Shown in pieces: positions 24,517 to 31,446 of a stretch of DNA of 64,000 nt (within the stretch, counting starts at the first letter, position 1; each line of letters starts with the position of its first letter). Where the stretch lies: positions 69,361-133,360 of the forward strand of contig CANRIN010000001.1 of assembly GCA_947630675.1 (NCBI GenBank), given 5' to 3'. Origin of the DNA: an uncultured Clostridia bacterium. Its GTDB lineage: Bacteria; Bacillota; Clostridia; Oscillospirales; JAAYOS01. Below the pieces are notes generated by a model. The model was not told the origin of the DNA. It saw only the letters and a list, made by a program, of their open reading frames with translations, and did not search any database. The translations under genes were made by a program, and so were the position numbers.

Positions 24517-25781
24517 TTTCTGTCCTCCGTGCGGATAAGCGCGCTCCGTGCGTGTGCGGTGAGGCCCTCCTTGCGGGCAAAGTACGCCACGTCCTCCGCC
24601 GCCCTGCCGAGCGCCGCCCCGGTGTAGTATGTGTACTGTATCTTCTTTACGAAGTCGTCGACCGAAAGCGGGCTTGAGAACTTCGCGGTCCCGCCGGTCG
24701 GAAGCGTGTGGTTCGGCCCCGCGAAGTAGTCGCCCAAGGCTTCGGGACAGTTCCTGCCGAGGAACACCGACCCCGCGCTGCGTATCCCGTCAAGCAGCGC
24801 GAACGGCTCGTCCACGCAGAGCTCCAGATGCTCCGGCGCTATCTCGTTTGTGGTCTCTATCGCCGCCCTGAGACTTTCCGCTATGATTATCTTTCCGTTG
24901 CCGTCAATGGAGGCGCGCGCGATATCCGCACGCTCGAGCAGAGGTATCTGCCGCTCAAGCTCGTGCGCCACCGCCTCCGCGAGCGCCTCCGAGTCGGTCA
25001 CGAGAACGGCGCTTGCCATCCTGTCGTGCTCCGCCTGCGAGAGCATGTCCGCCGCGACATGCCGCGGGTCGCTCCTGTCGTCTGCTACGATAAGTATTTC
25101 GCTCGGGCCGGCTATCATGTCGATATCCACCTTGCCGAACACCTGCTTCTTCGCCTCCGCGACAAAGGCGTTGCCCGGCCCGACTATCTTATCCACCTTC
25201 GGGATACTCTCCGTGCCGTATGCGAGCGCCGCCACCGCCTGCGCTCCGCCGACCTTGAATATGCGGTCGACTCCGGCGACCGATGCCGCCGCGATGATCT
25301 CGGGCTTTACCCGGCCGCGCCTGTCCGGAGGCGTAACTATGACTATCTCGCGGCATCCGGCGAGCTTTGCCGGGATGGCGTCCATCATGACGGTCGAGGG
25401 ATAGGCCGCCGTGCCTCCCGGGACGTACAGACCGACCCGGTCTATCGGCACCACCTTCTGACCGAGGACGATCCCTTCCTCGTCGTTTATTATGAAGCCC
25501 GTCCTTTTCTGGCACTCGTGGAACTTCCGGATGTTTGCCGCGGCGCGCTCAAGCACCGCAATGAACTCAGGCTCTACCGAAGCCATTGCCTCCGCAGCTT
25601 CCGCTTCGCCGACCTCCAGAGTGTCCGGGACCGCTCCGTCAAACTTCTGCGTGTACTCAAGGAGAGCCTTGTCCCCATCGCGCCGGACCCGTTCGATTAT
25701 TTCGGCCACCGCCGCCGCGACGTCCGTCTCGGGCTCGGTGCGGGCAAATATCTTTTCCGCCGGCACCTCGCCGAACTTCAT
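24513..25781 (-). CDS. hisD: Histidinol dehydrogenase
   Basis: The start was set at MKFGEV... (422 aa). The longer 544-aa ORF runs out of frame over hisG. Motifs: GGAQA.AALAYGTE.I.KVDKI.GPGN..V..AK, SQAEHD. Confidence 0.9.
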   Translation of the reverse strand: MKFGEVPAEKIFARTEPETDVAAAVAEIIERVRRDGDKALLEYTQKFDGAVPDTLEVGEAEAAEAMASVEPEFIAVLERAAANIRKFHECQKRTGFIINDEEGIVLGQKVVPIDRVGLYVPGGTAAYPSTVMMDAIPAKLAGCREIVIVTPPDRRGRVKPEIIAAASVAGVDRIFKVGGAQAVAALAYGTESIPKVDKIVGPGNAFVAEAKKQVFGKVDIDMIAGPSEILIVADDRSDPRHVAADMLSQAEHDRMASAVLVTDSEALAEAVAHELERQIPLLERADIARASIDGNGKIIIAESLRAAIETTNEIAPEHLELCVDEPFALLDGIRSAGSVFLGRNCPEALGDYFAGPNHTLPTGGTAKFSSPLSVDDFVKKIQYTYYTGAALGRAAEDVAYFARKEGLTAHARSALIRTEDRK

Positions 25782-25789
25782 TACCCTTA

Positions 25790-26428
25790 TCACTTTATCT
25801 CCTCCACCCTGCGGGAGAGGCCGCTCAGTATCCTCTCGACCGCCCCGTGTTTGAATTTGAAGCTTGATTTGTTGGCGATAAGCCGCGCGCTTATCGGAAC
25901 TATCGTGTCCACCACCTCGAGGTTGTTTTCCCGGAGCGTCGAACCTGTCTCGACTATGTCGACTATGACGTCGGAAAGGCCGACTATCGGTGCAAGCTCT
26001 ATCGAGCCGTTGAGCCGGATTATATCTATGTCGCGGCCGGTCGAGGCGTAGTACCTCTGCGCGATATGGGGAAATTTTGTCGCGACGCGCAGCGTGTGGC
26101 GCTCTTCGCCGCGGCATCCGCACGGAGCCGCGACGGCCATCCTGCACTTTCCTATCCCGAGGTCCAGGAGCTCGTAGACCTCCGGCTCGTACTCGAGCAG
26201 GATATCCTTTCCGGCTATCCCGACATCCGCCGCGCCGCGCTCGACATATATCGCAACGTCCGACGGCTTCACCCAGAAGAAGCGCACGCCTGCCTCCGGA
26301 TCTTCAAAGACGAGCTTCCTTCCGTTCTCCTCTATCGCGGGACAGGAAAAGCCGGCGTCCGCAAGCATTCCGTAAGCCTTCTCGCCGAGCCGTCCCTTCG
26401 GCAGGGCAATATTCAGCATATCGCTCAT
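25790..26428 (-). CDS. hisG: ATP phosphoribosyltransferase, short (HisZ-dependent) form
   Basis: 212 aa. MLNIALPKGRL.E......L...G................F..V...D...YVE.G.AD.GI.GKD.L.E. Confidence 0.9.
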   Translation of the reverse strand: MSDMLNIALPKGRLGEKAYGMLADAGFSCPAIEENGRKLVFEDPEAGVRFFWVKPSDVAIYVERGAADVGIAGKDILLEYEPEVYELLDLGIGKCRMAVAAPCGCRGEERHTLRVATKFPHIAQRYYASTGRDIDIIRLNGSIELAPIVGLSDVIVDIVETGSTLRENNLEVVDTIVPISARLIANKSSFKFKHGAVERILSGLSRRVEEIK

Positions 26429-26430
26429 AC

Positions 26431-27366
26431 TCACATATCCTCCCTGACGGGGACGCGTTCGAGCATGTCCAGATAGACCGCAAATCCCACTGCCTTCGAG
26501 CTTCTTCCCATTCTGCGCATCAGCCTGTCGTATTGGCCGCCGGAAAGCACGCTTCCGGGCACTCCCTCCACGAATCCGGAGAAGATGATGCCGTTGTAAT
26601 AGTTCATGTCCCCGACGTTTGAAAAATCTACCCGGACATTCTTTGCCTCTCCGCCTAAAACGCTCAGAGCTTCCCGCAGCTCCTCTGTCTCGGGGCCGAT
26701 GCTGTACTCCTCGGATATGCCGTCGAGCCTGCGCAGCACGTCCGGCACCTCTCCGCAGATATCGAGGAGTCTGATGAGCGGCATATATCTCTCCTCCGCC
26801 ACGCCATGCGCAGAGCAGAGCTCCGCTATTCCGTGGCGGTTCTTTTCCCCGACACATTTCAGGACGGAAGCCCGGATATCTTCTCCTGTCGATATACGCG
26901 AAAGGAACGCGTCCAGTATACCGAGATGGGATACCTCGAGCAGATGATCGGCGCCGAGCAGGTCGAGACTTTCGGCCGCAAGCCGGAGCACTTCGCCCAC
27001 ATGCCCAATGTTTACTTCGCCGATGCACTCGAGCCCCGCCTGCATTATCTCCTTGAAGGCGCCCGTGCTCTTGGACACGCGGTAGACATTCTCGTTGTAG
27101 CAGAGGCGGTCCGGCTCGCCGGGCCGGTCGCGCCCGTTCTTGATTATCGAGAGCGTCACGTCCGGCTTGAGCGCCATGAGCCTGCCGCTGGTGTCCGTAA
27201 ATGTTATGATGCCGTCGGACACGAGAAAGTCCTTGTTGCGGCCGTACAGGTCGTACTCCTCGACTTTGTTCATTCGGTAACGCCGGAACCCGCTCTGCAT
27301 ATAGAGCGATCGGAGCGCGAAGATAAGCTTCTCGGTGTTGTCGAGGACGTCGAAATCTATGGTCAT
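26431..27366 (-). CDS. hisZ: ATP phosphoribosyltransferase regulatory subunit (HisRS paralog)
   Basis: 311 aa. HisS-like class II core without an anticodon-binding domain, directly upstream of the short hisG. Confidence 0.85.
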   Translation of the reverse strand: MTIDFDVLDNTEKLIFALRSLYMQSGFRRYRMNKVEEYDLYGRNKDFLVSDGIITFTDTSGRLMALKPDVTLSIIKNGRDRPGEPDRLCYNENVYRVSKSTGAFKEIMQAGLECIGEVNIGHVGEVLRLAAESLDLLGADHLLEVSHLGILDAFLSRISTGEDIRASVLKCVGEKNRHGIAELCSAHGVAEERYMPLIRLLDICGEVPDVLRRLDGISEEYSIGPETEELREALSVLGGEAKNVRVDFSNVGDMNYYNGIIFSGFVEGVPGSVLSGGQYDRLMRRMGRSSKAVGFAVYLDMLERVPVREDM

Positions 27367-27659
27367 AGTTCCTCACCGTTCTCGCGGAGGCGGTCTATCG
27401 CCGCCCTGTACCCGCCGCTGCCGTAGCTGAGGCACCGGCTCACGCGGCTAATAGTCGCGGAGCTCACCCCGACGTCCTTTGAGATCTCCTGATAGTTCAG
27501 TTTTTTGTCCAGCATGATCGCCGTATCAAGGCGCTGGGCCATCGACTGCATCTCATTTATCGTACAGAGGTCCTCGAAGAACGCGGCGCACTCCTTCTCG
27601 TCCTTCAGGCCTGCTATGACCCGGAACAGCCTGTCCAGAGAAGCGGAATGGTAATTCAT
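27363..27659 (-). CDS. YerC/YecD-family TrpR-like DNA-binding protein, first gene of the his operon
   Basis: 98 aa. ...FFEDLCTINEMQSMAQRLDTAIML.....Y.EI....GVSSATISRVSRCL.YG.GGY. ATGA overlaps the hisZ start. Confidence 0.8.
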   Translation of the reverse strand: MNYHSASLDRLFRVIAGLKDEKECAAFFEDLCTINEMQSMAQRLDTAIMLDKKLNYQEISKDVGVSSATISRVSRCLSYGSGGYRAAIDRLRENGEEL

Positions 27660-27706
27660 GGTTTATCCTCCGTCCATGCTTTGATTTAACTGTTTATTAT
27701 AATATC

Positions 27707-27724
27707 ACTTTAAAGCGATAAAGT
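27707..27724. promoter_or_regulatory. Candidate operator (inverted repeat) in the his-operon promoter region
   Basis: ACTTTA-AAGCGA-TAAAGT lies immediately upstream of the minus-strand (TGa)TATTATAAT -10 region at about 27693-27706. Confidence 0.3.
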
Positions 27725-27906
27725 AAAGAGCTATTTGCAAAATATTTCCCGGTCAGGCGGGATGTCTTTTTTCATCTCAAAAGAACGTATGATCCGCGCC
27801 TCAAAGCAGGATCATGCCCTTCAAAATACCGAATATGTACAGGCACAGACGTGCAGCCGCGCACAGGGCACGGCGCTGCCGCTTTCCCGACCTTCCGTCA
27901 GCGCGT

Positions 27907-27935
27907 TTGACGAAAGGCAGATTTTACGATATAAT
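27907..27935 (+). promoter_or_regulatory. Sigma-A promoter, now separated from its presumed gene by the inserted element
   Basis: TTGACG, 17 bp, TATAAT, followed by the SD-like AGAGAGGA at 27953-27960. Confidence 0.55.
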
Positions 27936-28121
27936 GTTATATACTTTATTGCAGAGAGGAAAAACAAAAGTCCCATTTCTAGATAAGTATTGATAAAGCA
28001 AACCACGCATAAATAATATGCCTTTTGATACGAAGGGATTGTTTCATAATTAAGGAACCGCTTCAAATTTGCACTTTCAATCAGGAACGCTAACATTATT
28101 CGATCTTGTTTGTTGTGGCAG

Positions 28122-28150
28122 TTGCATATTACAGTTTTATCTGGTATAAT
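28122..28150 (+). promoter_or_regulatory. Sigma-A promoter inside the element
   Basis: TTGCAT, 17 bp, (TGg)TATAAT. Confidence 0.55.
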
Positions 28151-28193
28151 ATCAATTAAAGAAAGTCTTGAAAAATCGTAGGAGGTGACAGAC

Positions 28194-28424
28194 ATGAAAA
28201 TGTTTAATCGGATTTTGAATACGATCATAGGTGCATTTATTGGAGTTTTTATCGGGCATGGAATATATGTATTATGGGATTTTAAGACTCATCCCGATTT
28301 ATATGCAATGCAGTCTGCGCCGTGGTACACAAGTATTTTATTATATGGTATATTAACGGCTATCGTTTTGGTTATAGCTATTATTATAAAGCTATTTATC
28401 CGACAAAAGTTAAAACAGCAATAA
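28194..28424 (+). CDS. 76-aa two-TM membrane protein of unknown function (passenger of the element)
   Basis: SD AGGAGGTG, 8 nt, ATG. The protein is MKMFNRILNTIIGAFIGVFIGHGIYVLW...WYTSILLYGILTAIVLVIAIIIKLFIRQKLKQQ. Confidence 0.6.
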   Translation: MKMFNRILNTIIGAFIGVFIGHGIYVLWDFKTHPDLYAMQSAPWYTSILLYGILTAIVLVIAIIIKLFIRQKLKQQ

Positions 28425-28586
28425 TTCAAGTTTGTCAGCAAATATCATTGCTTCATAATATCCTTAAGGAGCAAAATTATAACTATCAGTCATTTTCCTA
28501 TCAGCATTTTTGCGGGCAGGGATTTCTTTAAACATAATTGTGCAACCTGATAGTATCAATACTTATCTAGAAATGGGACAAACAAA

Positions 28587-29339
28587 ATGGAACTCTACTA
28601 CTTTTCCGCCACCGGAAATACCCTGTCCACGGCGAGGATGCTTGCGGACGAGCTCGGCGGCTGCAAGCTCATACCGATAGCATCCCTGAGCAAAACGGGC
28701 ACTATACATGTAACGGATGACGCCGTAGGCTTTCTCTACCCGATATACTACGGGGATATGCCGTACATAATTCGCAGCACGGTTTCCCGCATGGAGTTTG
28801 ACGGCGAGCCCTACATATTCGGGGTGTGTACATATCGCGGGTATATGGGGCCCTCCGGCCTGCGCCTGCATGACCTGCTCTCGAAGCGGGGGCAGAAGCT
28901 GTCGCTTTATCAGGGACTGAGCATGCCCGGCAACAGCCGCGAAAGCACGGCGGAGCATGTGCGCGAGTCCCTAGCGGCACAGCCCGGGAACGTGAAAGCG
29001 ATAGCGGATAGGATACGCCGCCGCGAGTCGGAGGAGTACACCGGTGAGCTGCCGGAGCCGTCGCCCGTCGGAAACGGCGCCGTGAATTTCCGCGGCATGA
29101 CCGCGGACGAGACGTGCATCGGCTGCGGGACCTGCGTCTCCGTCTGCCCGATGGACAACATCCGGCTCGTAAACTCCCACGCGGAGATCGGCCCGAACTG
29201 TCTCACCTGCCTTGCCTGCTTCCACTGGTGCCCGGCGGAGGCCATCTACATGTCACAGTCCGACGTGGGACAGCGCAGGCCGAAGTACCACCACCCGAAT
29301 GTGACCCTTGCCGACATCATAGCCGAAAAACAGCAATAG
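28587..29339 (+). CDS. EFR1-family ferredoxin (flavodoxin-like N-terminal domain plus a 2x[4Fe-4S] domain)
   Basis: MELYYFSATGNT...A..LA......I.... then CIGCGTCVSVCP....CLTCLACFHWCP. Confidence 0.8.
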   Translation: MELYYFSATGNTLSTARMLADELGGCKLIPIASLSKTGTIHVTDDAVGFLYPIYYGDMPYIIRSTVSRMEFDGEPYIFGVCTYRGYMGPSGLRLHDLLSKRGQKLSLYQGLSMPGNSRESTAEHVRESLAAQPGNVKAIADRIRRRESEEYTGELPEPSPVGNGAVNFRGMTADETCIGCGTCVSVCPMDNIRLVNSHAEIGPNCLTCLACFHWCPAEAIYMSQSDVGQRRPKYHHPNVTLADIIAEKQQ

Positions 29340-29393
29340 GTATTCCCAACGATTCCGTTCCGCTCCTGCAAGGATCAAACGCGCCAAATTGAG

Positions 29394-29445
29394 CCGTTAC
29401 AATAAAAGGCGAGGTTCCTCAGAACCTCGCCTTTTATTGTAACGG
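29394..29445. terminator. Bidirectional terminator (24-bp perfect stem)
   Basis: CCGTTACAATAAAAGGCGAGGTTC-CTCA-GAACCTCGCCTTTTATTGTAACGG, between convergent genes. Confidence 0.75.
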
Positions 29446-29512
29446 AAAATCCGATCGTCCGCGAAGCGGACACCGCCCCTCTTCACTCTTCACTTTTACC
29501 TTTTCACTGCCC

Positions 29513-29911
29513 CTATATCCCTATCCACCAGCACACGCCGTAGCGGTCGATGACGGTGGCGCAGCAGCTGTTCCAGGGGAGCTCATAGATGGGTTCCAGG
29601 ACTACGCCGCCGTCGCTCAGAACGTCGAGCGCGTTTTTCACCGCTTCCTCACTGCCGAGCTCAAACGCGTTGAACGTCATAGTCTGCCACTTCAACCGAT
29701 GGATAACGCTCACGTCGTAAGGCTTTGCGTAGGGCTCCGCCGCCTCCGCCGCGGCAAGCATGGGTTCGCCGTTCACCGAGAGCTCGCAGTGTTCGTAGGC
29801 AGTTCCGGCAGCGTTCTTTATCGCGAACGTCACCTCCGCCCCGAAGGCTTTGCAGTACGTTTCTACCGCCTCGAGGCTGTTCATCACATACACCTGCGGA
29901 TAGCACTTCAT
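29513..29911 (-). CDS. VOC/glyoxalase-superfamily protein (PhnB-like)
   Basis: 132 aa. MK.YP.V......EAVE.Y...FGAE.......... ending ..VIDRYGVCWWIG. Confidence 0.7.
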   Translation of the reverse strand: MKCYPQVYVMNSLEAVETYCKAFGAEVTFAIKNAAGTAYEHCELSVNGEPMLAAAEAAEPYAKPYDVSVIHRLKWQTMTFNAFELGSEEAVKNALDVLSDGGVVLEPIYELPWNSCCATVIDRYGVCWWIGI

Positions 29912-29973
29912 ATCAGTTTCCCTCCGATTTGTTTTTTAGTTCATTATAATGCGCTTTCTGCTCCGCGTCAATG

Positions 29974-30002
29974 TTGAACCGCGTTCGGAAATGTTGTATA
30001 AT
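29974..30002 (+). promoter_or_regulatory. Sigma-A promoter candidate for the sigma/anti-sigma operon
   Basis: TTGAAC, 17 bp, TATAAT. Confidence 0.5.
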
Positions 30003-30062
30003 ACCCATATAGACTCTATGGAATACGGCAAAACCCCGACAGATCCCGCGCGGAGGTGTTCT

Positions 30063-30539
30063 GTGAACGCGGAAGAGAAGGCGTTTGTGGAAAAACTGTA
30101 TATCGAGACGGCGCAGCTGCTCCTCGGCTACGCGCGGCGGCTCCTCGGCGACAGAGACCTTGCCGAGGAGGCGGTGCAGGACGCCTTTCGGGTGGCGTGT
30201 TCCCGCGCGGATGTGCTGATGGCGAGCGCGAACCCGCAGGGCTGGATGATGAACACCGTCAAGAACGTCTCGAGGAACATCGTGCGGAGCCGCGCGCGGT
30301 CTGCAACCTTCCTTGCGAAGATGCAGCTCGAGGAAAAGGCATATACCGAGCCGCACGACATACACGACCCGGACCTGCTCTATGAAAACCTGAAGAACAA
30401 CGAGGACTACCTGCTCCTGAGACGCCTCTCCGAGCCGGGGGCGACGATAGCGTCGGTAGCGCGGGAGCTCGGCATAGGAACGGAGGCCTGTTCAAAGCGG
30501 ATACAGCGGGCGCGGAAGCGGCTCCAAAAATATTTTTAG
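30063..30539 (+). CDS. Sigma-70 family (ECF-like) RNA polymerase sigma factor
   Basis: Region 2 (LLLGYARRLLGDRDLAEEAVQDAFRVA) and region 4 HTH (ATIASVARELGIGTEACSKRIQRARKRL). The GTG start follows GGAGGTG. An upstream ATG at 30018 is possible but lies too close to the promoter. Confidence 0.75.
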   Translation: MNAEEKAFVEKLYIETAQLLLGYARRLLGDRDLAEEAVQDAFRVACSRADVLMASANPQGWMMNTVKNVSRNIVRSRARSATFLAKMQLEEKAYTEPHDIHDPDLLYENLKNNEDYLLLRRLSEPGATIASVARELGIGTEACSKRIQRARKRLQKYF

Positions 30540-30600
30540 AAATTTTCAAAAAAACTGTCCCGAAATCGGGACGTGCGGACATACACAGTCGGAAGGAGGA

Positions 30601-31446
30601 ATGTCCGTGTCAAACAAGAAACGAAATTTCGGAGAGATGAGCACCGAGCGGCTGCGTGAGCTGCTCCGGCTGGACTTCTATCTCGACACCGAGGACGGCC
30701 TCTCCGGCGAGGAACTGCTCGAAATTAACAGGATACTTACCGAGCGGGAACCGGAAAGCGTGGAGGACATGCCGTCCGCGCCGGAGATGTGGCAGCGGTT
30801 CGAGCGGGACTATCTGCCCAACTTTGAGAGCGGGTCGCTCTATGCGGACGGAGAGGACGCCGAGCCCGAGCCTGTCATTTCGGTCAAGCGGGGCAGAAGG
30901 ATACGCTGGAGGAGCAGCGCGGTGAGCCGCGTCGCGAGCGTGCTGCTCGTGGTGCTGCTGCTCGTGGGTGCGGGTGCGGTGACGGCGGAGGCCGCGGGCT
31001 ACGGCTCGTGGGACGCGCTCAGCCGCCTCGCCTACGGTGCGTTCCGCTGGGATGGAGAGTCCGCCTCGCAGGCGCCGCTCCGCGAGGTGCTCGCGGCGTA
31101 CGACATGACCGACCCGGTCGCGCCGGAGTACATCCCGAAGGGGTACAGCCTCGACTGGGTGAACGTCAGTCAGGACGCCGTCCGCGTCAACTTCTACGCC
31201 AAGTATGAGAACAGAGACGCCGAGGTCCTGACGGTGCTCGTTACATTCTACTTCCCGGACGCCGACGAGAGCCCCGCTCCCGTCACGGAGGGGGAGAGCT
31301 ACTTCGCCGGCGGCATAGAGCACCGCATAGTCGAGCGCTCCGGACGCTGCTCGGCGGCGTGGGTGAACGGCCGGTACGAGTGCAGCATATCCGGCGGCAT
31401 CTCCGCAGAGGAGATGCGCGCGATGCTAGACTCTGTGTACAAATAG
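30601..31446 (+). CDS. Membrane-anchored DUF4367-type protein, probable anti-sigma factor
   Basis: 281 aa. Cytoplasmic N-terminus, a single TM (VASVLLVVLLLVGAGAV), and an extracytoplasmic C-terminus (PEYIPKGY.L..........V.F.Y). It lies directly after the sigma gene. Confidence 0.6.
   Translation: MSVSNKKRNFGEMSTERLRELLRLDFYLDTEDGLSGEELLEINRILTEREPESVEDMPSAPEMWQRFERDYLPNFESGSLYADGEDAEPEPVISVKRGRRIRWRSSAVSRVASVLLVVLLLVGAGAVTAEAAGYGSWDALSRLAYGAFRWDGESASQAPLREVLAAYDMTDPVAPEYIPKGYSLDWVNVSQDAVRVNFYAKYENRDAEVLTVLVTFYFPDADESPAPVTEGESYFAGGIEHRIVERSGRCSAAWVNGRYECSISGGISAEEMRAMLDSVYK

Follow-up and report, generated by a model that had tools for sequence, protein, structure and literature searches.

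According to PMC3129680 (citing De Palmenaer 2004 for the first class and Siguier, Gagnevin and Chandler 2009 for the second), mobile insertion cassettes (MICs) are an established class of insertion sequence (IS) derivatives that lack a transposase and carry a passenger, while certain members of the IS1595 family, termed 'transporter IS', carry passengers downstream of the transposase gene (tnp). Examples of MICs include MIC231 of Bacillus cereus, which is mobilised by IS231A, and the qnrD and qnrS2 'mic' elements (PMC3913671, PMC2600179). Here we describe a 610-bp element (27970-28579) in a contig of an uncultured Clostridia bacterium. It encodes a 76-residue membrane protein and sits immediately upstream of a ferredoxin gene. 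We interpret it, with a probability of about 85%, as a MIC that arose by deletion from an insertion sequence of the IS1595 family with a passenger gene and that is no longer autonomous. All coordinates refer to the whole 64-kb stretch of DNA that was analysed (the window), unless a relative is named.

In common with MICs, the window element has IS-type repeats at both ends, no transposase gene, one passenger unrelated to transposition and a target duplication; matching ends also surround different passenger modules, so that the arrangement is modular. It differs from MIC231 in its parent family, which is IS1595 rather than IS4 (IS231), in its 8-bp duplication and in its gut clostridial host. 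It also carries a small membrane-protein gene where the passengers of these MICs are an enzyme or resistance gene, and its mobilisation in trans is deduced from sequence comparison. At the sequence level the element has every feature of a MIC and of an association with IS1595.

The element had been labelled a miniature inverted-repeat transposable element (MITE) in the original prediction. MITEs do not code for protein and typically occur in many copies. The window element resembles them in being non-autonomous, in having terminal inverted repeats and a target duplication, and in deriving from an IS by internal deletion; unlike them, it codes for a conserved protein with a promoter and a Shine-Dalgarno (SD) sequence and was found once per genome segment, and the label was abandoned because the element is coding. 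The suggestion that it may represent a new element family was likewise given up, since its repeats are the ends of an IS1595-family element, and both MICs and passenger-carrying IS1595 members were already established.

Ends of the element and its transposase-bearing relatives

The left and right terminal inverted repeats (IRL and IRR) comprise 26 nt and are 100% complementary. GC content is 0.30-0.34 within the element and ~0.55-0.65 in the flanks (overall, 0.328 for the element and 0.60 for the window). The perfect repeats, the 8-bp duplication and the AT-rich interior were all located where the original prediction had placed them. The features that define the ends and the origin of the element are listed here; L034 and L011 are relatives described below.

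27962-27969, no strand: left target-site duplication, 8 bp, AAACAAAA
27970-27995, plus strand: IRL, GTCCCATTTCTAGATAAGTATTGATA, on the side of the former tnp gene
27990-28017, plus strand: inward-reading promoter-like site TTGATA-16-AATAAT with its -35 within IRL (10/12, consensus match only)
27996-28016, plus strand: subterminal region beside IRL, conserved in L034 (IRL-proximal) and in the K+ channel cassette L011
28018-28053, plus strand: remnant of the 3' end of an IS1595-type tnp, marking the internal deletion that removed tnp
28554-28579, minus strand: IRR, perfect reverse complement of IRL
28580-28587, no strand: right target-site duplication, 8 bp, AAACAAAA, whose final base is the A of the ferredoxin ATG

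Across the junctions of the element, at least 12 independent contigs assembled from metagenomes of several studies align collinearly with the window, and an assembly artefact is therefore excluded. Metagenomes in which this stretch is represented include SRR29273042, the ERZ27249xxx series and DRR848887. No extra copy of the 26-bp repeat was present in the 64-kb window with three mismatches allowed, nor did any occur in 100 shuffles. An Rfam scan of 27300-29600 returned nothing within the element, BLASTN of the 610 bp against plasmid and phage collections gave no match, and a repeat-derived 18-mer had no match in viral contigs.

Scans with repeat-derived 20-mers identified one locus among species-representative genomes (L011) and one among metagenome contigs (L032). 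L011, from a Clostridia metagenome-assembled genome of sheep colon, is an 816-bp cassette without tnp that has the same ends and is flanked by the duplication TTTTTTAA; its interior is wholly different and contains a complete 231-residue K+ channel gene. L032 has the same right end and an AT-rich segment with a truncated zinc-ribbon/helix-turn-helix (HTH) protein ending ...VEGDEFY. In this locus the truncated transposase is joined to the C-terminal part of a K+ channel gene (tnp truncated and fused to the channel fragment, 15-503).

Homologues of the L032 transposase fragment led to L034. This element measures 2211 bp and is bounded by a perfect 23-nt inverted repeat (GTCCCATTTATAGATAAGTATTG) that differs from the window repeat at one position. 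It contains an InsA-type zinc-ribbon open reading frame (ORF), a DDE ORF and then a 253-residue zinc-ribbon membrane-protein passenger. L034 is the transposase-encoding partner with matching repeats that the original prediction had proposed to look for, with the qualifications that its tnp is frameshifted and its repeat has the one mismatch. The frameshift results from a deletion of ~11 nt (L034 409-1636). The same 23 nt occur at the element ends of L011, L032, L034 and L041, the last being a second copy of the window cassette.

The L034 DDE ORF scored above the cut-off with both NF033547 (NCBIfam IS1595; 90.3 bits, cut-off 75) and the Pfam model PF12762 (DDE_Tnp_IS1595; 36.4, cut-off 27). The N-terminal zinc ribbon matched the IS1/IS1595 zinc domain NF050000 (51.5 bits, cut-off 28) as well as PF03811. 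An exhaustive HMMER search identified four intact relatives of ~430 residues that pass the IS1595 cut-off at 80-104 bits (P0246, P0398, P0247 and P0251), one of which, P0398, is present on 20 contigs. Searching annotated plasmids by tblastn returned IS1595-family transposases only, with at most 39% identity (ISBwe1, ISCpe8, ISClsp5 and ISCaje5), and viral contigs yielded no match when the intact P0246 protein guided the scan.

Two further loci bear on this group. At L051 (746-1273) tnp has an in-frame stop, and at L052 (251-1583), on a contig of GCA_024712465.1, it is frameshifted at a G-run beside the EGDE motif. Downstream of the L052 transposase relative (45% identity), at 1604-1969, lies a passenger ORF, one more kind at the position after tnp, whose GNPPY motif is characteristic of N6-adenine DNA methyltransferases or of restriction enzymes of type IIG.

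In their order of IRL, tnp, passenger and IRR, and in zinc-ribbon and DDE regions that pass the IS1595 cut-offs, L034, L032 and more distantly L052 resemble 'transporter IS'. They depart from that model in the length of the subgroup transposase (~430 residues) and its identity of at most 39% to named elements, and the window element departs from it in having no tnp. The subgroup, with its long transposase, GTCCCATTT ends and interchangeable membrane-protein passengers, appears to be unnamed; the GTCCCATTT end is not known to match any named IS1595 subgroup end consensus.

The window element retains a trace of such a transposase. The L034 transposase ends in MPFDTKGL, and these eight residues are encoded in the window at positions 28018-28041 (tblastn, 8/8); the nucleotide match comprises 15 exact nucleotides and 22/25 identical positions, with a pairwise E value of 0.001. 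The C-terminal motif P(L/M)PFD(I/T)KG(I/L) also occurs in the intact relative P0246. When the cognate transposase was searched against the element by tblastn, this 8-residue remnant was the only match, in agreement with the original prediction that the element has no transposase. In addition, the ~45 bp at the left end (repeat plus subterminal region) align with the tnp-proximal end of L034 and L011, and all passengers are co-directional with tnp and placed between it and the right repeat. The promoter-like site at 27990-28017 is probably the former tnp promoter.

These comparisons bear on the assignment to IS1595. Other families also generate 8-bp duplications (IS1, ISL3, IS256, IS6 or IS66), and if the element belonged to one of them, the likeness of its ends to those of L034 would be coincidental or recombinational. 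The N-terminal transposase fragment does match an IS1 model (50 bits) and a zinc-binding domain shared by IS1, IS1595 and IS256. However, the IS1 score is below its cut-off of 100, while the DDE region passes the IS1595 cut-off in L034 and in the four intact relatives, and the plasmid search gave IS1595-family annotations only. Moreover, the likeness covers 23 nt of the repeats, with a single mismatch, and extends to the subterminal sequence and the tail of tnp. An origin in another family is very improbable on this evidence, and descent from an IS1595-family element is preferred.

A second insertion of the cassette

The contigs L041 and L044 carry the same cassette in a different, AT-rich genome, where the flanks are 41% GC and the neighbouring genes are unrelated to those in the window. 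This copy is 94% identical in nucleotide sequence over ~600 bp, with perfect repeats and the same internal layout, and its passenger protein (P0002) is 97% identical to the window protein, two residues being different. The 8-bp duplication around this copy, AAAATATA, is not the one seen in the window. Both copies share the junction left by the tnp deletion, at which the IRL-subterminal sequence ...CATAAATAATA is joined to the tnp tail. Because the same deletion junction is found at two unrelated sites, the deletion must have preceded both insertions and the tnp-less element itself has moved; we therefore infer, from these sequences, that it was mobilised in trans. The second copy, at a different site and with its own duplication, also bears out the original view of the segment as a transposed element.

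The shared junction is what separates this reading from decay in place, in which a full IS1595-type element with the 76-residue passenger inserted at the ferredoxin locus and lost tnp later, with no mobilisation in trans. The tnp 3' remnant documents descent from a tnp-bearing element by internal deletion, as decay in place would have it, and no partner transposase was seen in the 64-kb window. The copy in L041 and L044, with the same junction and its own duplication, instead places the deletion before both insertions, and decay in place is accordingly improbable.

The same copy bears on the possibility that the segment is an inverton, a recombinase-driven invertible promoter that switches the ferredoxin gene on and off with the 26-bp repeats as crossover sites. 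Such a switch would be in keeping with perfect inverted repeats that enclose promoter-like sites of either orientation and lie immediately before a gene. Inversion systems, however, do not generate the 8-bp direct duplication that flanks the repeats, and the segment recurs at an unrelated site, where its 8-bp duplication is a different one. Its repeats also bound an element that encodes an IS1595-type transposase, and the called neighbours (hisZ-like, TrpR-like, ferredoxin, glyoxalase-like and sigma factor genes) include no recombinase-like gene. The check for inverted orientation proposed in the original prediction gave 0 inverted among the at least 12 independent contigs, all of which are collinear with the window. 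An inverton is hardly credible in view of these findings, which favour a transposed cassette.

The proposed course of events would begin with an ancestor of the structure IRL-tnp-passenger-IRR on a single strand, with a transposase of ~430 residues comprising a zinc ribbon, an HTH and a DDE region. An internal deletion would have taken tnp and spared its last eight codons, leaving IRL with the subterminal sequence, the passenger module (promoter, SD and the 76-codon gene) and IRR. A cognate IS1595-type DDE transposase, acting in trans, would then have recognised the 26-bp ends. The cassette would have entered an A/T-rich octamer, duplicating AAACAAAA; by chance, this octamer separated the SD of the ferredoxin gene from its ATG.

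IS1595-family elements reportedly generate 8-bp, preferably A/T-rich target duplications, as exemplified by ISApl4 (PMC12561309). All three duplications observed here (AAACAAAA, AAAATATA and TTTTTTAA) fit this pattern. In a 60% GC genome, octamers with at most one G or C make up 1.7%, and the A-rich SD-ATG spacer is among them. The original prediction had seen significance in the single-base precision with which the element meets the start codon; the landing at the ATG is instead explained by the family's preference for A/T-rich 8-bp targets. Functional targeting of start codons was also considered and rejected, since in L041 the ATG that follows the duplication opens an ORF of only 29 codons and is not a gene start; the actual downstream gene begins 100 bp further on, behind its own promoter (TTGACT-17-TATAAT). 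At L011 the cassette sits in the T-tract of an apparent intrinsic terminator (2790-2822; CCCCGCACGATGATCGGGG followed by a T-run), a further case of the A/T-rich preference steering insertion into a regulatory spacer.

Several observations weigh against the interpretation as a MIC mobilised in trans. Each genome segment examined contained a single copy of the element, which gives no sign of amplification, and tblastn detected no cognate-type transposase in the 64-kb window. The L034 element has no target duplication, tnp is defective in all four loci with these or related ends (L034, L032, L051 and L052), and the intact ~430-residue relatives are not tied to these exact repeats. The empty site that the original prediction had suggested looking for was not found: all contigs of the species that cover the site carry the element. 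Likewise, the nearest ferredoxin orthologues (at most 69% identity) are not syntenic, homologues of 66% and 62% identity lying in other gene neighbourhoods. Finally, the statements on expression made below are based on consensus matches and a duplex-energy calculation.

The passenger gene and its protein family

The 76-residue gene is the sole ORF with expression signals in the element. Its promoter, strong SD and two-transmembrane product had been recognised in the original prediction and were recovered as follows.

28122-28150, plus strand: cargo promoter TTGCAT-17-TGgTATAAT, unchanged between the two independent insertions (consensus match only)
28180-28185, plus strand: strong cargo SD, AGGAGG, 8 nt before the ATG at 28194
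28194-28424, plus strand: passenger gene, 76 residues, two transmembrane helices, member of a conserved uncharacterised clostridial family

The extended -10 of the promoter is perfect and the -35 is weak (3/6 match). A promoter scanner did not list the site on account of this -35, and it was read directly from the sequence. The cargo SD begins one base further left than might be assumed.

The original prediction had called for profile and structure searches with the passenger protein. These established a strongly conserved family (608 homologues in the database) with an invariant loop, HPDLYAMQSAPWYTSI, between the two hydrophobic helices, and an AlphaFold2 model that forms a helical hairpin (pLDDT 88); they gave no match that assigns a function. 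The protein had no above-threshold match in Pfam, NCBIfam, PHROG, PADLOC or PDB sequences, the Pfam matches (DUF3169, holin-like) and those in NCBIfam being sub-threshold. Foldseek with the AlphaFold2 model returned generic helical hairpins only (E > 1).

The closest homologues outside the cassette are 86-87% identical in amino acid sequence and 88-90% in nucleotide sequence, and lie in ordinary chromosomal contexts without the repeats. Similarity between the cassette and these homologues is limited to the ORF and ~25 nt upstream of it, and ends at the stop codon. The lack of repeats around the chromosomal homologues, together with homology confined to the ORF, identifies the cargo as a captured native clostridial gene. 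The idea that cargo homologues are mobile in general was rejected, as P0005, P0007 and P0048 have no repeats.

One of these homologues, the 83-residue P0048, was found at four loci (L022, L023, L025 and L027). It is always followed by a 61-residue ORF and a gene for a protein like CotF (spore coat protein F), and the upstream neighbours vary. This gene order hints at a possible role in sporulation for the cargo family.

The ferredoxin gene, its altered leader and strain variation

The features of the ferredoxin locus are given below.

27907-27935, plus strand: native sigma-70-type promoter-like site TTGACG-17-TATAAT (11/12, the best in the region), now displaced from the gene
27954-27959, plus strand: native SD, GAGAGG, displaced; 9 nt before the ATG in the restored site
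28432-28459, plus strand: second rightward promoter-like site TTGTCA-16-CATAAT, 3' of the cargo stop and directed toward the ferredoxin gene (10/12, consensus match only)
28587-29339, plus strand: EFR1-family ferredoxin gene (NF038196), 250 residues, intact, separated from its own SD and promoter

The ferredoxin scored 172 bits with NF038196 (cut-off 75). Since the alignment to this model begins at residue 3, the ATG at 28587 is the true start. Removal of 27970-28587 in silico restored GAGAGG, a 9-nt spacer and the ATG, confirming that the element lies between the SD and the start codon of an EFR1 ferredoxin gene, as first proposed. In the present arrangement the native SD is 618 bp upstream of the ATG. 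The calculated SD/anti-SD duplex energy was -10.4 kcal/mol for the native leader, -5.8 kcal/mol for the present leader (…GAAATGGGACAAACAAAATG) and -15.9 kcal/mol for the cargo SD. Replacement of the native SD by the weak GGGA within the repeat probably lowers ferredoxin translation, as these energies suggest.

Besides the native promoter-like site, there are three within the element that point rightward (27990-28017, 28122-28150 and 28432-28459). No intrinsic terminator was found between the cargo stop codon and the ferredoxin ATG, consistent with the original prediction that none follows the passenger ORF. Transcripts of the ferredoxin gene would now be read-through products, started at the native promoter and at up to three promoter-like sites of the cassette. 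The likely net outcome is that transcription continues and translation is weaker. It may be speculated that in transcripts from the native promoter the two repeats pair, in a structure that ends 8 nt before the AUG and might occlude initiation.

In its position directly upstream of an intact gene, with rightward promoter-like sites and no terminator before that gene, the element resembles IS insertions that rewire their neighbours. It is unlike such insertions in that its location between SD and ATG removes the translation signal as well.

In three strains the flanks are ~3% divergent from the window, whereas their copies of the element show just 1-2 differences in 610 positions (Poisson P ~1e-7). 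The block of low divergence continues beyond the element for 50 bp on the left and 90-460 bp on the right. This pattern suggests that the element arrived recently and that homologous recombination then carried the occupied allele from strain to strain; an old insertion or independent insertions would fit it less well. An exact look-up of the TrpR-like neighbour returned only occupied or uninformative contigs. At the same site in L035, the cargo ORF has a 1-bp deletion (on the reverse-complement strand, at window position 28307), with a called product of 90 residues. Either the deletion is a sequencing error, or this strain has lost the function of the cargo.

Upstream of the element, the minus strand (25400-27660) carries a gene for a TrpR-like regulator, followed by hisZ-like, hisG and hisD-like genes. 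The downstream region (29949-31446) has a gene for a sigma factor of the extracytoplasmic function type (29949-30539) and one for a 281-residue protein, maybe an anti-sigma factor. Neither group displays a link to the element. Between the convergent ferredoxin and glyoxalase-like genes there is a perfect 24-bp inverted repeat with a 4-nt loop and A/T-rich outer ends (29394-29445), which most probably serves as an intrinsic terminator in both directions; the only Rfam matches to this hairpin were spurious ones to miRNAs. Just 5' of it (~29376-29388), strains differ by indels of 13-18 bp.

The passengers seen so far in elements with these ends are a K+ channel, a zinc-ribbon membrane protein and the 76-residue hairpin protein, all at a fixed place just past the tnp stop codon. 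A broader proposal, in which the unnamed IS1595 subgroup acts as a modular shuttle for small membrane-protein genes and the occupied ferredoxin allele spread because it is beneficial, we consider doubtful. Were the allele beneficial, the advantage could come from the cargo itself or from rewired ferredoxin expression; the alternative is neutral hitch-hiking.

The current understanding of transposition is unchanged by this element. It provides a clean natural example of a transposase-less cassette that moves a chromosomal gene between distant gut Clostridia, with hosts of ~41% and ~60% GC, and of how an A/T-rich target preference steers insertions into the SD-ATG spacers of GC-rich genomes. For annotation, the 76-residue gene is mobile cargo rather than a native neighbour of the ferredoxin gene, and the ferredoxin gene no longer has its native translation signal. 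An unnamed IS1595 subgroup, with a transposase of ~430 residues and interchangeable passengers, is present in animal-gut metagenomes.

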